DNA of 64,000 nt from a phage. Positions 1,908 through 59,477 of this stretch are shown here, in pieces (position 1 is the stretch's first letter; each line of letters begins with the position of its first letter). The DNA is taken from the sequence record PZ445436.1; one strand, 5' to 3'. The position numbers and the translations under genes were made by a program. The notes under the pieces are model-generated. The model searched no databases and was not told where the DNA came from. It saw nothing but the letters and a program-made list of their open reading frames with translations.

Positions 1908-1944
1908 TTTTGTTCTCCGAGATGTTTAATTGCGGTACAGGTAT

Positions 1945-1973
1945 ATAATATCATATCCTGTACCAAAGTAAAC
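1945..1973 (-). promoter_or_regulatory. T4 early-type promoter (GTTTAC, 17 nt, TATTAT)
   Basis: -35 at 1968-1973, -10 at 1945-1950 on minus strand; flanked by inverted repeat GGTACAGG/CCTGTACC. Confidence 0.6.
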
Positions 1974-5132: not shown

Positions 5133-5365
5133 AGTACGCCATACACCCTTTGTGCTTCAACTAATCCATCAAAATCCAATTTAAGATGCGATATTTGATC
5201 GCCATCGCCTGGATTCACAATTACTAATACTGAACGAGGAGTTTCGGTAATAACACGAACCGATGTTTCAGGAAATCGTTCAGAAACCTTATTTACTAAT
5301 TCCTGCGCAAATAGTTTAACTTTTTCTTGGAATTCTTTAACAGTAATTGGTTTTTCACTTAGCAT
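5129..5365 (-). CDS. hypothetical protein
   Basis: 78-aa ORF. Confidence 0.5.
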   Translation of the reverse strand: MLSEKPITVKEFQEKVKLFAQELVNKVSERFPETSVRVITETPRSVLVIVNPGDGDQISHLKLDFDGLVEAQRVYGVL

Positions 5366-5886
5366 GTTGATCCCAGCTCCTTACTTTCAACATTTTTAAC
5401 TAATTTGACAGAAACTAATTCAGCATCTTGAGTAATCATTACCGGACCTTCTTCATACTCTTCAAGATATTCTAGAGCTTTCTTTTTAGCTTCTTCCTTC
5501 GTATCAGTTTGAGCATAGATATAAAACATACAACCAGTAATACCTACTACTTTCCACTTAATTTCTTTATCAGCTTTAATTTCAAATTTACTGACAGAAT
5601 CATCTTTTTGAACTTCTTCGAAAAAAGAATATTCTAACATATAAGCAATTGAAAATAACGGGCTATCTTTATAGGATTCGCCCATTACATCAATAGCTTT
5701 ATACCAACAGTCATCAATTTCGCGTTTAATGCTAATAACATTCTTTGCAGGGTCAATTTTTACTTTAAATAAATTTTCCCCAATAAACTGGGCAATTCGT
5801 TTATTAGCCCCGCAAGTTTCATTAAAAATATCTTTATACCCAGTTTTAAAGCGATAAACCTTATCTTCTTCAAACCATTCGCTCAT
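5359..5886 (-). CDS. hypothetical protein
   Basis: 175-aa ORF; early-type promoter upstream. Confidence 0.55.
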   Translation of the reverse strand: MSEWFEEDKVYRFKTGYKDIFNETCGANKRIAQFIGENLFKVKIDPAKNVISIKREIDDCWYKAIDVMGESYKDSPLFSIAYMLEYSFFEEVQKDDSVSKFEIKADKEIKWKVVGITGCMFYIYAQTDTKEEAKKKALEYLEEYEEGPVMITQDAELVSVKLVKNVESKELGSTC

Positions 5887-5916
5887 TTCAATTTCCTCAT
5901 TTGTTTTGGTAGAGCT

Positions 5917-5946
5917 ATAATATCACAACTCTACCGTAAAGTAAAC
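5917..5946 (-). promoter_or_regulatory. T4 early-type promoter
   Basis: GTTTAC, 18 nt, TGATATTAT. Confidence 0.55.
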
Positions 5947-17241: not shown

Positions 17242-17267
17242 TTTATTCTCCTCAAGTTGATAAGGCT

Positions 17268-17297
17268 ATAGTATCATTACCATAGCCCGTTGTAAAC
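17268..17297 (-). promoter_or_regulatory. T4 early-type promoter
   Basis: GTTTAC, 18 nt, TGATACTAT; -10 flanked by GGCTAT/ATAGCC inverted repeat. Confidence 0.6.
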
Positions 17298-19367: not shown

Positions 19368-20021
19368 TTAATACTTGCAAGATTTCACAGTTTCAATAAA
19401 AACTTTTTTAGCTTCCTGTGAATCAATATTTAAAATTTTTCTATAAGCCTTTAACTTTATAGAATAATTATTCCAGACTAAATTATCAGTCTGTTCATCA
19501 TGTTTATCAATTATATTTAAAAATGAATCAAGCAAGATAAACGTCTCAAACGAAATTATGTTCGATTGCAGAAGTTTAAAAATATAACTTGATTGAACCT
19601 TTGGATTATATTCAAAGATTTCTTTAAAAGCAGAAACTTCAACTTTTTTACTAAAATAATAAATGTTGCGAATATCTTCTTCAAACTTAAATTTAATTTG
19701 CTTTAAGCGTCCGATATATTCACGATAAAACACAAGTGCATCAGCGTCAGAGATGTCGCCAATCCAAGCATCTTGGTTAGCAACCAAATTACTTATAAAG
19801 ATTAAAGCAAGTTCCTTTAATTTATATTTTTCTGATAACTTCTGGAAAAAATACTTATCCCTTCGCTTTTGATAAGCGGCATCAGACACCCGCATGCACC
19901 AATTATACTTAATTACATCATACTTTCCATTCATATGCTGTTTTATCATTAAGTATAATTTATAAACTGATTTACCATCAATGTATCTTTCACCACCAGC
20001 AGGCATGCGGAGTTTAATCAT
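19368..20021 (-). CDS. 59: gp59 helicase loader
   Basis: 217 aa, T4 gp59 length and position. Confidence 0.9.
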   Translation of the reverse strand: MIKLRMPAGGERYIDGKSVYKLYLMIKQHMNGKYDVIKYNWCMRVSDAAYQKRRDKYFFQKLSEKYKLKELALIFISNLVANQDAWIGDISDADALVFYREYIGRLKQIKFKFEEDIRNIYYFSKKVEVSAFKEIFEYNPKVQSSYIFKLLQSNIISFETFILLDSFLNIIDKHDEQTDNLVWNNYSIKLKAYRKILNIDSQEAKKVFIETVKSCKY

Positions 20022-21633: not shown

Positions 21634-24600
21634 ATGGCCGAGATTAAAAGAAAGTTCAGAGCAGAAGATGGTCTGGACGCAGGTGGTGATAAAATAATCA
21701 ACGTAGCTTTAGCTGATCGTGCCGTAGGAACTGACGGTGTTAACGTTGATTACTTAATTCAAGAAAACACAGTTCAACAATATGATCCAACTCGTGGATA
21801 TTTAAAAGATTTTGTAATCATTTATGATAACCGCTTTTGGGCTGCTATAAATGATATTCCAAAACCGGCAGGAGCTTTTAATAGCGGACGCTGGAGAGCA
21901 TTACGTACCGATGCTAACTGGATTACGGTTTCATCTGGTTCATATCAATTAAAATCTGGTGAAGCTATTTCGGTTAACACCGCAGCTGGTAATGATATTA
22001 CATTTACTTTACCATCTACCCCAATTGACGGTGATACTATCGTTCTCCAAGATATTGGAGGAAAACCTGGAGTTAACCAAGTTTTAATTGTAGCTCCGGT
22101 GCAAAGTATTGTAAACTTCAGAGGTCAACAGGTACGTTCAGTACTAATGACTCATCCAAAGTCACAGCTAGTTTTAATTTTTAGTAATCGTCTGTGGCAA
22201 ATGTATGTTGCTGATTATAGTAGAGAAGCTATAGTTGTAACACCAGCAAGTCTCTATCAGGCGCAATCTAATGATTTTATCGTACGTAGATTTACTTCTG
22301 CTGCACCAATTAATGTTAAACTTCCAAGATTTGCTAATCATGGCGATATTATTAATTTCGTTGATTTAGATAAACTGAATCCACTTTATCATACAATTGT
22401 TACTACATACGATGAAACGACTTCAGTACAAGAAGTTGGAACTCATTCCATTGAAGGCCGTACATCAATTGACGGTTTCTTGATGTTTGATGATAATGAG
22501 AAATTGTGGAGATTGTTTGACGGGGATAGTAAAGCACGTTTACGCATTATAACGACTAATTCTAATATTCGTCCAAACGAAGAAGTCATGGTATTTGGTG
22601 CGAATAACGGAACAACTCAAACAATTGAACTTCAGCTTCCAACTAATATTTCTGTTGGTGATACTGTTAAAATTTCCATGAATTACATGAGAAAAGGACA
22701 AACAGTTAAAATCAAAGCTGCCGGTGAAGATAAAATTGCTTCTTCAGTTCAATTGCTGCAATTCCCAAAACGTTCAGAATATCCACCTGAAACTAAATGG
22801 GTGACTGTTCAAGAATTAGTTTTTAACGGTGAAACTAATTATGTTCCAGTTTTGCAACTTGCTTACATAGAAGATTCTGATGGAAAATATTGGGTTGTGC
22901 AACAAAATGTTCCAACTGTAGAAAGAGTCGATTCTTTAAATGATTCTACTAGAGCAAGATTAGGCGTAATTGCTTTAGCTACACAAGCTCAAGCTAATGT
23001 CGATTTAGAAAATTCTCCACAAAAAGAATTAGCAATTACTCCAGAAACATTAGCTAACCGTACTGCTACTGAAACTCGCAGAGGTATTGCAAGAATAGCA
23101 ACTACTGCTCAAGTGAATCAGAACACCACATTCTCTTTTGCTGATGATATTATCATCACTCCTAAAAAGCTGAATGAAAGAACTGCTACAGAAACTCGCA
23201 GAGGTGTCGCAGAAATTGCTACGCAGCAAGAAACTAATGCAGGAACCGATGACACTACAATCATCACTCCTAAAAAGCTTCAAGCTCGTCAAGGTTCTGA
23301 ATCATTATCTGGTATTGTAACTTTTGTATCTACTGCAGGTGCTACTCCAGCTTCTAGCCGTGAATTAAATGGTACGAATGTTTATAATAAAAACACTAAT
23401 AATTTAGTTGTTTCGCCAAAAGCTTTGGATCAGTATAAAGCTACGCCTACTCAACAGGGTGCAGTAATTTTAGCCGTTGAAAGTGAAGTAATTGCTGGAC
23501 AAAGCCAAGAAGGATGGGCAAATGCTGTTGTAACGCCAGAAACGTTACACAAAAAGACATCAACTGATGCAAGAATTGGTTTAATTGAAATTGCTACGCA
23601 AAGTGAAGTTAATACAGGAACTGATTATACTCGTGCAGTCACTCCTAAAACTTTAAATGACCGTAGAGCAACTGAAAGTTTAAGTGGTATAGCTGAAATT
23701 GCTACGCAAGTTGAATTCGACGCAGGCGTCGACGATACTCGTATCTCTACACCATTAAAAATTAAAACCAGATTTAATAGTACTGATCGTACTTCTGTTG
23801 TTGCTCTATCTGGATTAGTTGAATCAGGAACTCTCTGGGACCATTATACCCTTAATATTCTTGAAGCAAATGAGACACAGCGTGGTACACTTCGTGTAGC
23901 TACACAGGTTGAAGCTGCTGCAGGAACATTAGATAATGTTTTAATAACTCCTAAAAAGCTTTTAGGTACTAAATCTACTGAAGCACAGGAAGGTGTTATT
24001 AAAGTTGCAACTCAAGCTGAAACCGTAGCTGGAACATCAGCAAATACTGCTGTATCTCCAAAAAATTTAAAATGGATTGTCCAGTCTGAACCAACATGGG
24101 CTGCTACTACGGCGATTCGTGGATTCGTTAAAACTTCATCCGGTTCTATTACATTTGTTGGTAATGATACAGTTGGTTCAACACAACCTTTAGAATCATA
24201 TGAGAAAAATAGCTATGCAGTATCACCATATGAATTAAACCGTGTACTTGCTAACTATTTGCCATTGAAAGCTAAAGCCGTAGATAGTAATTTATTAGAT
24301 GGCCTAGATTCATCTCAGTTCATTCGTAGGGACATTGCACAGACGGTTAATGGTTCACTAACCTTAACACAACAAACGAATCTGAGTGCCCCTCTCGTAT
24401 CATCTAGTACTGCTACGTTTGGTGGTTCAGTTTCGGCAAATAGTACATTAACTATTTCTAATACTGGAACGGCAACTCGTCTGATTTTTGAGAAAGGACC
24501 TCAAACTGGAACTAACCCAGCGCAGACGATGACTATTAGAGTTTGGGGAAATCAGTTTGGTGGTGGATCAGATACAACACGTTCTACTGTATTTGAAGTT

Positions 24601-37626: not shown

Positions 37627-37654
37627 TTTCTGTTCCTCCGTAGTTGATAGGGTA

Positions 37655-37684
37655 ATAGTACCACGGAAGAACAGTCTTGTAAAC
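37655..37684 (-). promoter_or_regulatory. T4 early-type promoter
   Basis: GTTTAC, 18 nt, TACTAT; conserved downstream block CAACTATCAACTACGGAGGA. Confidence 0.6.
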
Positions 37685-37790: not shown

Positions 37791-37873
37791 AATAACCTCA
37801 TCACAAAAGTAAATGTTAAACAAATTAATGGAATACTAATTAACCAAACAAAACACCACCATAATGAACTCAT
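37787..37873 (-). CDS. possible 28-aa hydrophobic peptide
   Basis: ATGA overlaps at both ends; MSSLWWCFVWLISIPLICLTFTFVMRLL. Confidence 0.3.
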   Translation of the reverse strand: MSSLWWCFVWLISIPLICLTFTFVMRLL

Positions 37874-38133
37874 AGTTCAATCTCAATGATTTCCAGGTGT
37901 TTTTGTTTTATTGCCTTTTTAACACAATCATGGACTAAATATGACCATGAATCATTATATTCTCCATTAACTAATCGTTGGAGATCTTCACGTGATGATA
38001 AGTAAGGTTGATCTGATTCCCATTTTGATAAAAATACTGCAGTAAAAATATCTCCTTCACCTGTAGTTGAAGTCGTAAATGCAATAAATTCACCGGTAAT
38101 TTTATGTTTAGCGTAATAAAATTTAAATTTCAT
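37870..38133 (-). CDS. hypothetical protein
   Basis: 87 aa from ATG 38131-38133 with GGAGGAG SD; early promoter lies inside the longer track ORF. Confidence 0.5.
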   Translation of the reverse strand: MKFKFYYAKHKITGEFIAFTTSTTGEGDIFTAVFLSKWESDQPYLSSREDLQRLVNGEYNDSWSYLVHDCVKKAIKQKHLEIIEIEL

Positions 38134-38160
38134 TTTTACTCCTCCGTAGCTGATAGTTGT

Positions 38161-38190
38161 ATAGTACCACGGTCCTTGTGGTATGTAAAC
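38161..38190 (-). promoter_or_regulatory. T4 early-type promoter
   Basis: GTTTAC, 18 nt, TGGTACTAT; same conserved downstream block. Confidence 0.6.
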
Positions 38191-38207
38191 CATTTTGTGA
38201 AATTTTT

Positions 38208-38765
38208 TTAAATGGAAAGATACCATCCGTTGTAGTTGCTTTTTCTTACAACCTTACGAAGGTCTTCTCTGTCACCGATGAACTTCGGAGTGTACTGGAT
38301 GACACCTGGATGAATTTCTTTAGTGTTGAATATAATTATACAGTCAGCGACTTGATGATTTAGAATGGGCCCTAGATTTATTCCAGAACCGTATGGATAC
38401 TCTCCGCTGCATCCTGTTGTTACAGAAATCCAACGTGAGTCAGTTTGGTGTGTCTTAACTTCTACACGAAGCCCGCAGTATCTTGGATGCGCCAATACAT
38501 CCCATGCGTATGTATACGGGTCATTAACATCCTCTTGGCCTTTATTAACATACCCGCTTAACCAATCTGCTACAAAAAATTCTGCGTACACAGCGATACG
38601 ACATCTTTCAATAACTTCTGCTTTATCCTGGTTCGGGTTTTGTTTTAAAGAGTATCTTGCTGTATCAGCAATTTTGACCTTCATTTCACTAGTCAAGTCA
38701 CTGTTCGATAGGGTAAATGTCGGAATCTGAAATAGTCTCTGTAAACCCGGATTCGTTTTCTGCAT
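38208..38765 (-). CDS. denB: endonuclease IV
   Basis: 185 aa, T4 DenB length and position upstream of ndd cluster; AAGGAAAG SD. Confidence 0.75.
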   Translation of the reverse strand: MQKTNPGLQRLFQIPTFTLSNSDLTSEMKVKIADTARYSLKQNPNQDKAEVIERCRIAVYAEFFVADWLSGYVNKGQEDVNDPYTYAWDVLAHPRYCGLRVEVKTHQTDSRWISVTTGCSGEYPYGSGINLGPILNHQVADCIIIFNTKEIHPGVIQYTPKFIGDREDLRKVVRKSNYNGWYLSI

Positions 38766-42656: not shown

Positions 42657-42686
42657 ATTATACCACATCCTTGTGGTAAAGTAAAC
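42657..42686 (-). promoter_or_regulatory. T4 early-type promoter (rIIA.1/rIIA transcription unit)
   Basis: GTTTAC, 18 nt, TGGTATAAT. Confidence 0.65.
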
Positions 42687-46045: not shown

Positions 46046-46327
46046 TTAATTGAACAGTGGAGCGATGCGTTTCAGAAGAGTAGCAGCACCTTTAGCGAAT
46101 TTTACATCATGAAAAACAGTTTCTTCTTCCGTTACAACACGAGCTTTAATGTTTTCACAATCCCAATTTTTGCGAACAATCTTCAAAAGCTGCAGTAAAT
46201 CTTTACATTCAGCAATATCGATAACACATCCACGAGAATCTTCCATTATCGCACGATAACCGTAAGCCATACCATAATCATTGAAAGATTGCTCGATGAT
46301 AATTAAATTTTCCATTTTATTCTCCAA
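46046..46327 (-). CDS. hypothetical protein
   Basis: 93-aa ORF. Confidence 0.5.
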   Translation of the reverse strand: MENKMENLIIIEQSFNDYGMAYGYRAIMEDSRGCVIDIAECKDLLQLLKIVRKNWDCENIKARVVTEEETVFHDVKFAKGAATLLKRIAPLFN

Positions 46328-46412
46328 GTTGTTTTCTGTATCAGTAGTTGATATTGATATAGTACCATAATCAACTACTGATGTATATAGTTTTATGAAA
46401 AAATTTTAAACT

Positions 46413-46904: not shown

Positions 46905-46948
46905 AGTTATCTCTCACTTGTTAAAAAGATTTTATACTCCACGGGACC

Positions 46949-46978
46949 ATTATACTCTGGTCCCAAGAGTTTGTAAAC
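46949..46978 (-). promoter_or_regulatory. T4 early-type promoter
   Basis: GTTTAC, 18 nt, TATAAT; -10 inside GGGACCA/TGGTCCC inverted repeat. Confidence 0.6.
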
Positions 46979-47938: not shown

Positions 47939-47965
47939 TTTATTATCCTCAGTAGCTATGGTGTT

Positions 47966-47995
47966 ATAATACCACAACTAACCGAGGAAGTAAAC
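47966..47995 (-). promoter_or_regulatory. T4 early-type promoter
   Basis: GTTTAC, 18 nt, TGGTATTAT. Confidence 0.6.
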
Positions 47996-59418: not shown

Positions 59419-59447
59419 AACAATCTCCTCATTTAACCAACAAGACT

Positions 59448-59477
59448 ACTATACCATAGTCTCGTTAGCTTGTAAAC
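59448..59477 (-). promoter_or_regulatory. T4 early-type promoter for dmd
   Basis: GTTTAC, 18 nt, TGGTATAGT; -10 flanked by AGACTA/TAGTCT inverted repeat. Confidence 0.65.

Follow-up and report, generated by a model that had tools for sequence, protein, structure and literature searches.

Hairpins embedded in the early promoters of a T4-type phage bear marks of selection on sense-strand RNA

Introduction

The early regions of T4 are rows of tiny genes that carry their own very strong promoters, and this raises the question of how such genes deal with transcription reading through from upstream. We addressed it in a 64,000-nucleotide (nt) stretch of phage DNA (record PZ445436.1; hereafter the window), in which a first-pass annotation had described five early promoters whose -10 element lies between the arms of a perfect inverted repeat. 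The arms differed in sequence from one promoter to the next, and the annotation had proposed selection on structure rather than chance, acting on a cruciform, an operator or a hairpin in read-through RNA. The architecture is that of the promoter-early stem-loop (PeSL), which is already published (Arbiol 2010, PMC2839356; Comeau 2014, PMC4122927). Here we show that the stems exist, exceed chance expectation, covary in relatives and tolerate G.U but not A.C mismatches, which points to selection on a hairpin in sense-strand read-through RNA.

The closest matches of a 2-kb piece of the window, which matched 960 phage records, were the Tequatrovirus genomes ECML-134, wV7 and PST (~98% identity), and the gene order is that of T4, running from gene 30.3 through rIIB/rIIA to uvsX. 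Nearly all genes are carried by the minus strand, the exception being the tail-fibre block, and every promoter discussed here is read on the minus strand, which is thus the sense strand throughout.

Embedded hairpins exceed chance expectation

An independent scan of the window located 20 GTTTAC-type promoter sites; perfect GTTTAC...TATAAT sites numbered five, against 0.11 expected. The -10 element lies 25-44 nt from the start codon in 19 of the 20, giving the intergenic setting with a Shine-Dalgarno sequence (SD) and start codon that is typical of PeSLs, and the downstream genes include 30.7, 30.8, frd.1, motB, motB.2 and dmd. Equally PeSL-like are the A/T-rich flanks upstream of the GTTTAC-N17/18-TAnnnT promoters at 1973, 17297, 46978 and 59477. 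A clear embedded hairpin (z ≤ -1.8) was found in about half of the window promoters and none in the remainder, so that the distribution is bimodal.

When six sites were compared with dinucleotide shuffles, each reached a z-score of -4.1 to -7.1, and 0 of 200 shuffles were as stable. Because promoters share position-specific composition, we also applied a stricter null in which the spacer of one promoter is joined to the downstream sequence of another (chimeras). Across the 20 window promoters, the longest perfect stem averaged 4.95 compared with 3.99 in chimeras (p = 1e-4), perfect stems of at least 7 bp occurred in 4 of 20 (1.6% expected), G.U-allowed stems of at least 8 in 9 of 20 (5% expected), and the minimum free energy was -9.6 kcal/mol for native sequences and -5.5 for chimeras (p < 5e-5). 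The excess persisted among 34 promoters from the window, T4 and RB69. It was also evident in IMG/VR, where 109 distinct sequences matched GTTTAC-N15-TGGTATAGT, an anchor that carries no information on the arms, and 16 of these had perfect stems of at least 8 (1.4 expected). Finally, in a larger set of 160 non-redundant promoters pooled from the window, T4, RB69 and IMG/VR, perfect stems of at least 8 bp were present in 33, versus 1.8-2.7 expected. The scan against shuffled controls that had been proposed for GTTTAC-type sites thus places the inverted repeats well above background, and together with the compensatory substitutions described below it supports selection on structure over chance.

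Inverted repeats at individual promoters

All five inverted repeats were located in the window sequence, three of them at exactly the coordinates first assigned and two with one end displaced by a single nucleotide (1963 should read 1964, and 59463 should read 59462). No sequence is common to the arms of different promoters, as had been claimed. A placement of the -10 between the arms of an early promoter was borne out at 30.7, frd.1, motB and dmd, where the promoters sit 26-44 nt 5' of the start codon, and held only in part at 46342-46380, where the promoter is non-canonical.

Upstream of gene 30.7 (1934-1973), the -35 GTTTAC (1973-1968) and the -10 TATTAT (1950-1945) accompany a hairpin with arms GGTACAGG (1964-1957) and CCTGTACC (1941-1934), which folds in sense RNA at -16.1 kcal/mol (z -5.4 against dinucleotide shuffles). 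The frd.1 promoter (17264-17297; -35 at 17297-17292, -10 TACTAT at 17273-17268) has the arms GGCTAT (17287-17282) and ATAGCC (17269-17264), the latter sharing the final 2 nt of the -10; its hairpin reaches -14.7 kcal/mol on the sense strand (z -4.1) and -10.1 on the antisense strand. At motB (46943-46978; -35 at 46978-46973, -10 TATAAT at 46954-46949), GGGACCA (46964-46958) pairs with TGGTCCC (46949-46943) at -19.7 kcal/mol (z -5.3). The dmd promoter (59435-59477; -35 at 59477-59472, -10 TATAGT at 59453-59448) contains the perfect core AGACTA (59462-59457) and TAGTCT (59448-59443) within an extended 15-bp stem with G.U pairs (59470-59456 and 59449-59435), and here the sense strand (-19.5 kcal/mol, z -7.1) is far more stable than the antisense (-6.9).

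The fifth repeat is an 11-bp hairpin (46342-46380) 5' of a small open reading frame (ORF) beside cef, with arms CAGTAGTTGAT (46380-46370) and ATCAACTACTG (46352-46342), a stability of -20.2 kcal/mol (z -5.1) and a -10-like TGG-TACTAT (46364-46359) in its loop. It lacks GTTTAC, its -35 being ATATAC (four of six matches), and so resembles a PeSL promoter only in part; at best it is a degenerate or extended -10 promoter. Its 3' arm is a conserved early-leader module of other promoters and its 5' arm is the exact complement of that module. T4 carries the identical sequence, with the small ORF downstream deleted. The leader module itself, ..cTATCAACTAC(T/G)GAGGA.., follows many early promoters in T4-type phages and RB69, including the window promoters 34541, 37684, 38190, 47995, 58974 and 17297, and also positions 19747 and 20523 of locus L018. 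In the window, the ORF between motB and cef is intact (93 codons, 46046-46327, minus strand); the corresponding ~200-bp deletion in T4 fuses ATGGAAAATT to CGCTAAAGG and keeps the upstream hairpin and SD.

Pairing is maintained in relatives

The first-pass annotation had named loss of the arms in relatives as a refuting result. Instead, pairing is kept, either by compensatory changes or by invariance. The strongest evidence came from the motB module, for which the invariant flanks AAACTCTT-N7-GAGTATAAT served as the query against IMG/VR, with the arms left free. This recovered 20 distinct T4-like modules with arm pairs GGGACCA/TGGTCCC, GGGAGCA/TGCTCCC, GGGGTCA/TGACCCC and GAGAGCA/TGCTCTC, in addition to G.U variants, and a tally of their pairs gave 128 Watson-Crick, 11 G.U, 0 A.C and 1 other. 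Seven non-promoter matches of the same anchor paired at chance level (18/49). In an alignment of 15 modules, 99% of cells pair and both sides have changed in four of the seven pairs; 0 of 500 shuffles gave as high a covariation score, and sliding the partner abolished pairing.

Compensatory changes were also seen at frd.1, at dmd and at the further promoter at 5946 (described below). A relative carries the frd.1 stem as GGTCTATAG/CTATAGACC, a compensatory insertion, and at dmd two differences separate T4 from the window, an A-U to G-C double change and a G.U to A-U change. The 30.7 arms were invariant across 13 IMG/VR alleles and RB69, which belongs to a different genus, save for one C-to-T change that yields a G.U pair, and the loop and 5' untranslated region (UTR) varied freely among the same alleles. 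Covariation was sought at 30.7 and seen in none of the relatives found, RB69 included, so this site offers conservation only.

Structural classes and the Shine-Dalgarno sequence

The 43 non-redundant promoters with a perfect stem of at least 7 bp divide according to how the 3' arm lies relative to the SD. In class A (31 of 43) the 3' arm stops short of the SD, with 25 starting -2 to +3 nt from the -10; the arm ends at about +0 to +8, the loop measures 8-16 nt and the hairpin ends 2-20 nt before the SD. The 30.7, frd.1, motB and dmd hairpins belong here, and our scan added three class A-type cases (5946, 32237 and 21588). In class B (12 of 43) the 3' arm overlaps the SD and loops span 20-35 nt, as at window promoters 2365, 37684, 47995, 53195 and 9252. 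A further arrangement, class C, places the hairpin wholly within the spacer and was found with at least 5 bp in 20 of the 160 promoters (3.5 expected). Class A stems around the -10 and class C stems inside the spacer both correspond to the stem-loop-on-promoter arrangement of PeSLs.

Among the 160 promoters, stems of at least 7 bp covering the SD occurred in 11, compared with 0.6 expected from shuffled spacers and 1.9 from chimeras. At motB.2 (47946-47995), the spacer TCCTCGGTTAGTTGTGGT pairs with the leader through the SD GAGGA (-23.1 kcal/mol). The promoter of a gene in the ndd.4 region (37630-37684) pairs CTGTTCTTCCGT (37674-37663) with ACGGAGGAACAG (37641-37630), which includes the SD GGAGG, and that of gene 30.8 (2316-2365) pairs TCCTTTGT (2351-2344) with ACAAAGGA (2323-2316), which overlaps the SD. 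For motB.2, the ndd.4-region gene, modB, alc and 30.8, the predicted probability that the SD is unpaired rises from 0.00-0.04 in read-through RNA to 0.59-0.82 in the gene's own transcript (0.00 versus 0.59 for motB.2, 0.00 versus 0.82 for the ndd.4-region gene and 0.04 versus 0.75 for 30.8). In RB69, the orthologues of the motB.2 and modB promoters have the same layout built from other arm sequences, the motB.2 orthologue using TCTCCTCTGGTT/AACCAGAGGAGA.

In T4, the genes e, soc, 49 and I-TevI each have a promoter inside the DNA from which the 5' strand of an RNA helix is transcribed; long upstream transcripts fold and conceal the ribosome-binding site, and transcripts from the internal promoter, which are missing that strand, are translated (PMC3014915). 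Class B (motB.2, the ndd.4-region gene, 30.8, modB and alc) has exactly this geometry, and by sequence this masking arrangement is present at 2365, 37684, 47995, 53195 and 9252. It is absent from the five originally described sites, where the SD, predicted to be accessible, lies outside the helix at a distance of 4-15 nt or more from the 3' arm. The systems also differ in timing, since in e, soc, 49 and I-TevI late or middle promoters silence late genes in early read-through RNA, whereas here the internal promoter is early. A sizeable subset of PeSLs therefore probably masks the SD in the manner of e, soc and 49 while using early promoters.

Ranked against chimeras, SD accessibility followed a U-shaped distribution in which class A SDs were the more open (ranks 27-34 of 34). 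This shape is suggestive, but it may arise simply because the hairpins are self-contained.

Strand asymmetry of the hairpins

The sense strand was more stable than the antisense strand at all six sites tested, the window means were -10.8 (sense) and -6.9 kcal/mol, and the excess of native over chimeric stability was greater on the sense strand. Near-perfect stems with one internal mismatch in the non-redundant set had G.U in seven cases, A.C in one and another mismatch in two; the proportions by chance are 15%, 17% and 68%, respectively. Taken with the 11:0 ratio of G.U to A.C at motB, this bias argues for selection on sense-strand RNA. Of the three mechanisms first put forward, the hairpin in read-through RNA is therefore the one that fits, and the cruciform and the operator do not.

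A role at the DNA level, in which supercoiled or single-stranded DNA would form a cruciform or hairpin that tunes promoter melting, or a dimeric protein would bind the repeat as an operator, has some appeal: a perfect Watson-Crick core adjoins the -10, the A/T-rich centre would melt readily, and in RB69 the two strands give stems of equal stability. Phage N4 also sets a precedent for hairpin promoters, since its early promoters are DNA hairpins with 5-7-bp stems and 3-nt loops that serve a dedicated virion RNA polymerase. The promoters here share with N4 the tie to an inverted repeat of variable sequence, but they are ordinary sigma-70 -35/-10 promoters and their signature is on the RNA-sense strand. 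We exclude a common operator, since each promoter has arms of its own sequence and, inside a module family, substitutions in one arm are compensated in the other. A cruciform is unlikely given that G.U is tolerated and A.C is not, that 6-8-bp stems with loops of 8-16 nt make poor cruciforms, and that in the sister class B the 3' arm is the SD itself, 20-35 nt away, which is unworkable in DNA. Long stems containing G.U pairs also collapse on the other strand, as at dmd, and extrusion of the spacer would ruin the -35/-10 geometry. Altogether, we regard a DNA-level function as very improbable.

Function of the hairpins

We infer from these patterns that the hairpins fold in vivo and that they bear on expression of the downstream gene. 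Each element would be a strong sigma-70 early promoter whose -35/-10 spacer is complementary to the sequence just past the -10. With the hexamers fixed and intergenic space limited to ~70 nt, the spacer and leader are the only free positions, which would place the -10 in the loop. If the promoter's own transcript starts ~7 nt past the -10, as we assume, it starts 3' of the 5' arm and would lack it, so that only RNA arriving from upstream would hold both arms and the hairpin would set a gene's read-through copies apart from those initiated locally. In class B, read-through copies would not be translated, which would leave the gene's own promoter as its only source of expression, the same logic that has been demonstrated experimentally for T4 e, soc, 49 and I-TevI. 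In class A, the read-through copy would most likely be insulated or down-tuned without canonical termination, either through masking of the 5' leader or standby region or through a barrier to decay or processing; our preference for such RNA-level insulation over termination is only moderate and amounts to a guess. On balance we consider it probable that in PeSL-type elements the spacer evolved to pair with sequence past the -10 and that the hairpin marks read-through copies, insulating or down-tuning them or, in class B, silencing them.

Several observations weigh against this interpretation. The sense bias is absent from 11 RB69 promoters (-9.4 sense versus -10.3 antisense), and across the 160 promoters the bias in stem extension is weak, with 37 G.U-tolerant and 29 A.C-tolerant stems of at least 9; the tally of mismatch types given above is the clearer measure. 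At the class A sites singled out at the start, the SD is not occluded, its unpaired probabilities in read-through RNA and own transcript being 0.80/0.53, 0.54/0.48 and 0.58/0.42. Many spacers are C/T-rich, and mean SD accessibility was the same in native read-through RNA as in chimeras (0.310 versus 0.309), a null that is confounded because all SDs are alike and for which we therefore substituted the stem-overlap test reported above. A search of the available literature found no maps of T4 transcript 5' or 3' ends. Arbiol 2010 reports, moreover, that one RB49 stem-loop (PeSL211/210) reduced lacZ expression in a transcriptional fusion as much as rrnB T1 did (PMC2839356).

That reporter result supports the PeSL authors' own proposal of a terminator or attenuator, under which the stem-loop stops or lowers upstream transcription and leaves each small early gene driven by its own promoter. 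The hairpins are indeed intergenic, directly between tandem early genes, as intrinsic terminators would be, and six of eight promoters with a canonical terminator upstream have no embedded hairpin (2 of 8 with the hairpin, versus 12 of 26 without such a terminator), a split that fits a role in handling read-through and is not significant. No T-run or U-tract adjoins any class A or class B hairpin, however, their 3' flanks being A/C-rich; loops of 8-16 nt (20-35 nt in class B) are unlike those of terminators, and many stems are rich in A/U or G.U pairs. In our terminator scan, 0 promoter-embedded hairpins passed, and on neither strand does an adjoining T-run allow the hairpins to be read as intrinsic terminators, a reading that we rejected. 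Textbook terminators do occur elsewhere in this genome, with a GC-rich stem, UUCG-type tetraloop and T-run, found by the scan 14-91 nt upstream of a -35. One of them (2394-2415; GAGGACTCC-TTCG-GGAGTCCTT followed by TTTTATTTT, annotated as a terminator in wV7) lies just upstream of the 30.8 promoter at 2365, which is itself hairpin-bearing, so that one promoter carries both devices. Nor does termination offer a rationale for the class B 3' arm being specifically the SD. We consider termination or attenuation unlikely as the general function.

Selection at the RNA level on the sense strand would also suit an element of RNA stability or processing, which after RNase E or RegB cleavage would act as a 3' barrier for the upstream cistron or a 5' stem-loop for the downstream one. 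The A/U-rich UP-element just 5' of the hairpin and the GGAG motifs just 3' of it (the motB family reads TGGTCCC-gt-GGAG-tataaaa) resemble RNase E and RegB target contexts (reviewed in PMC3014915), and the class A SD is open, more so than in chimeras. Yet the open SD may follow trivially from the hairpin being self-contained, a 6-8-bp stem is a modest obstacle to exonucleases, and class B is left unexplained; this reading strikes us as distinctly unlikely. An RNase III site was also rejected, as most stems are well under ~20 bp, and a scan of the window against Rfam gave no match at the gathering threshold. Least credible alongside the DNA-level role is a non-adaptive origin, by quasi-palindrome templated mutation or by duplication of recombining promoter cassettes that have no function of their own. 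Promoter and leader modules are certainly paralogous and shuffled, with the flanks AAACTCTT...GAGTATAAT and the leader ATCAACTAC in common, and the same module flanks recur at different loci; the T4 reference notes a loop-inversion discrepancy between one arm pair, and PeSL-mediated recombination is documented (PMC2839356). Against such an origin, pairing of the arms has survived numerous independent substitutions, in contrast to the drifting loops and UTRs, mismatches confined to G.U imply that selection acts on one strand, and class B specifically targets the SD.

Insulation of translation or RNA fate in read-through copies could be extended into a broader and more doubtful proposition, namely that T4-type early spacers form a general 'anti-leader' code: by pairing with a gene's own leader or SD in any upstream-derived RNA, they would make small early genes translationally deaf to read-through, so that protein is yielded only during firing of the gene's own early promoter. 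If true, this tentative idea would carry the e/soc/49 principle beyond a few late genes to at least a quarter of early genes, and would recast PeSL stem-loops as translational insulators, not terminators.

Relation to known systems

The resemblance to PeSLs is close. Arbiol 2010 reports ~50 PeSLs per genome in RB49 and phi1, with stems mostly between -35 and -10 or over the -10 and with G-T pairs marked, and proposes a terminator or attenuator (on one reporter construct) together with modular recombination (PMC2839356). Comeau 2014 gives, for the PST/T4 pair, the consensus TTTACW-N17-TAYWAT and AGNA-loop-TCNT stems (PMC4122927). The window, ~98% identical to PST, contains AGACTA/TAGTCT and AGGACTA/TAGTCCT, which match the AGNA-loop-TCNT form, and shares with PeSLs the strong sigma-70-type early promoter, the A/T-rich upstream region, the many copies with differing stems and, at the 3' end, a small gene's SD and start codon.

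As far as the available text of these papers goes, the published stems are read as terminators or attenuators and recombination sites without statistics or covariation, canonical upstream terminators are not separated from -10 hairpins that lack a U-tract, and the SD-pairing subset is not mentioned. Our analysis adds quantitative support and covariation, a sense-RNA signature free of terminator features, and the SD-masking subset, and thereby sharpens the 2010 observation into testable models that set insulation of translation or RNA fate against termination. A search of the available literature found no functional follow-up of PeSLs, and T4 reviews leave the feature undiscussed apart from the ribosome-binding-site-masking hairpins of e, soc, 49 and I-TevI. 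The relevance is mainly for specialists in phage gene expression and for designers of phage-derived promoter parts, as these promoters bring hidden RNA structure with them if placed downstream of another promoter.

Further observations

Other canonical terminators on the minus strand lie at 18337-18319 (before promoter 18286) and upstream of promoters 34541 and 55297. With the one before promoter 2365, the four precede the next -35 by 14-35 nt and form terminator-plus-promoter cassettes, distinct from the hairpins embedded around the -10.

In the motB leader (46905-46945, minus strand), pairing of the SD GAGAG is predicted in the gene's own transcript as well (unpaired probability 0.01), and a GGAG motif 2 nt 3' of the hairpin, ~30 nt before the start codon, could be a RegB-type site. 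Class C is exemplified by ACCACA-agga-TGTGGT, found in the window at 42657-42686 and 38161-38190 and in RB69 upstream of rnlA and alc (locus L019), with the covarying variants CACCA/TGGTG and AACACC/GGTGTT.

Inside gene 34, an antisense match to GTTTAC-N18-TACAAT (22087-22116, minus strand) lies ~0.5 kb from the gene start. The T4 annotation places oriG (ori34) at 152947, ~2.1 kb into gene 34, with primer RNA opposite to the gene, and because of this difference in distance the match does not coincide with the oriG position. Two minus-strand ORFs, 37870-38226 and 5359-5886, follow promoters 38190 and 5946 and have no T4 counterpart; as replacement loci beside PeSL-type promoters they resemble the exchange of ndd.4/.5 and ORF268/269 between PST and T4.

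The promoter at 5946 (5908-5946; -35 at 5946-5941, -10 TATTAT at 5922-5917) is homologous to T4 Pe133295. Its arms, GGTAGAG (5935-5929) and CTCTACC (5914-5908), form a class A hairpin of -16.3 kcal/mol (z -6.1), and orthologues in other phages have GGTGGAG/CTCTACC, with a G.U pair, or GGTAGGACT/AGTCCTACC. The 14-nt loop between the arms in T4 (TTGTGATATTATAG; NC_000866 133300-133313, L224 1300-1313), homologous to window 5915-5928, bears a misc_feature that reads 'inverted complement of previously reported sequence; corrects the early promoter Pe133295'. The flipped loop once reported there is either a sequencing artefact or a real inversion.

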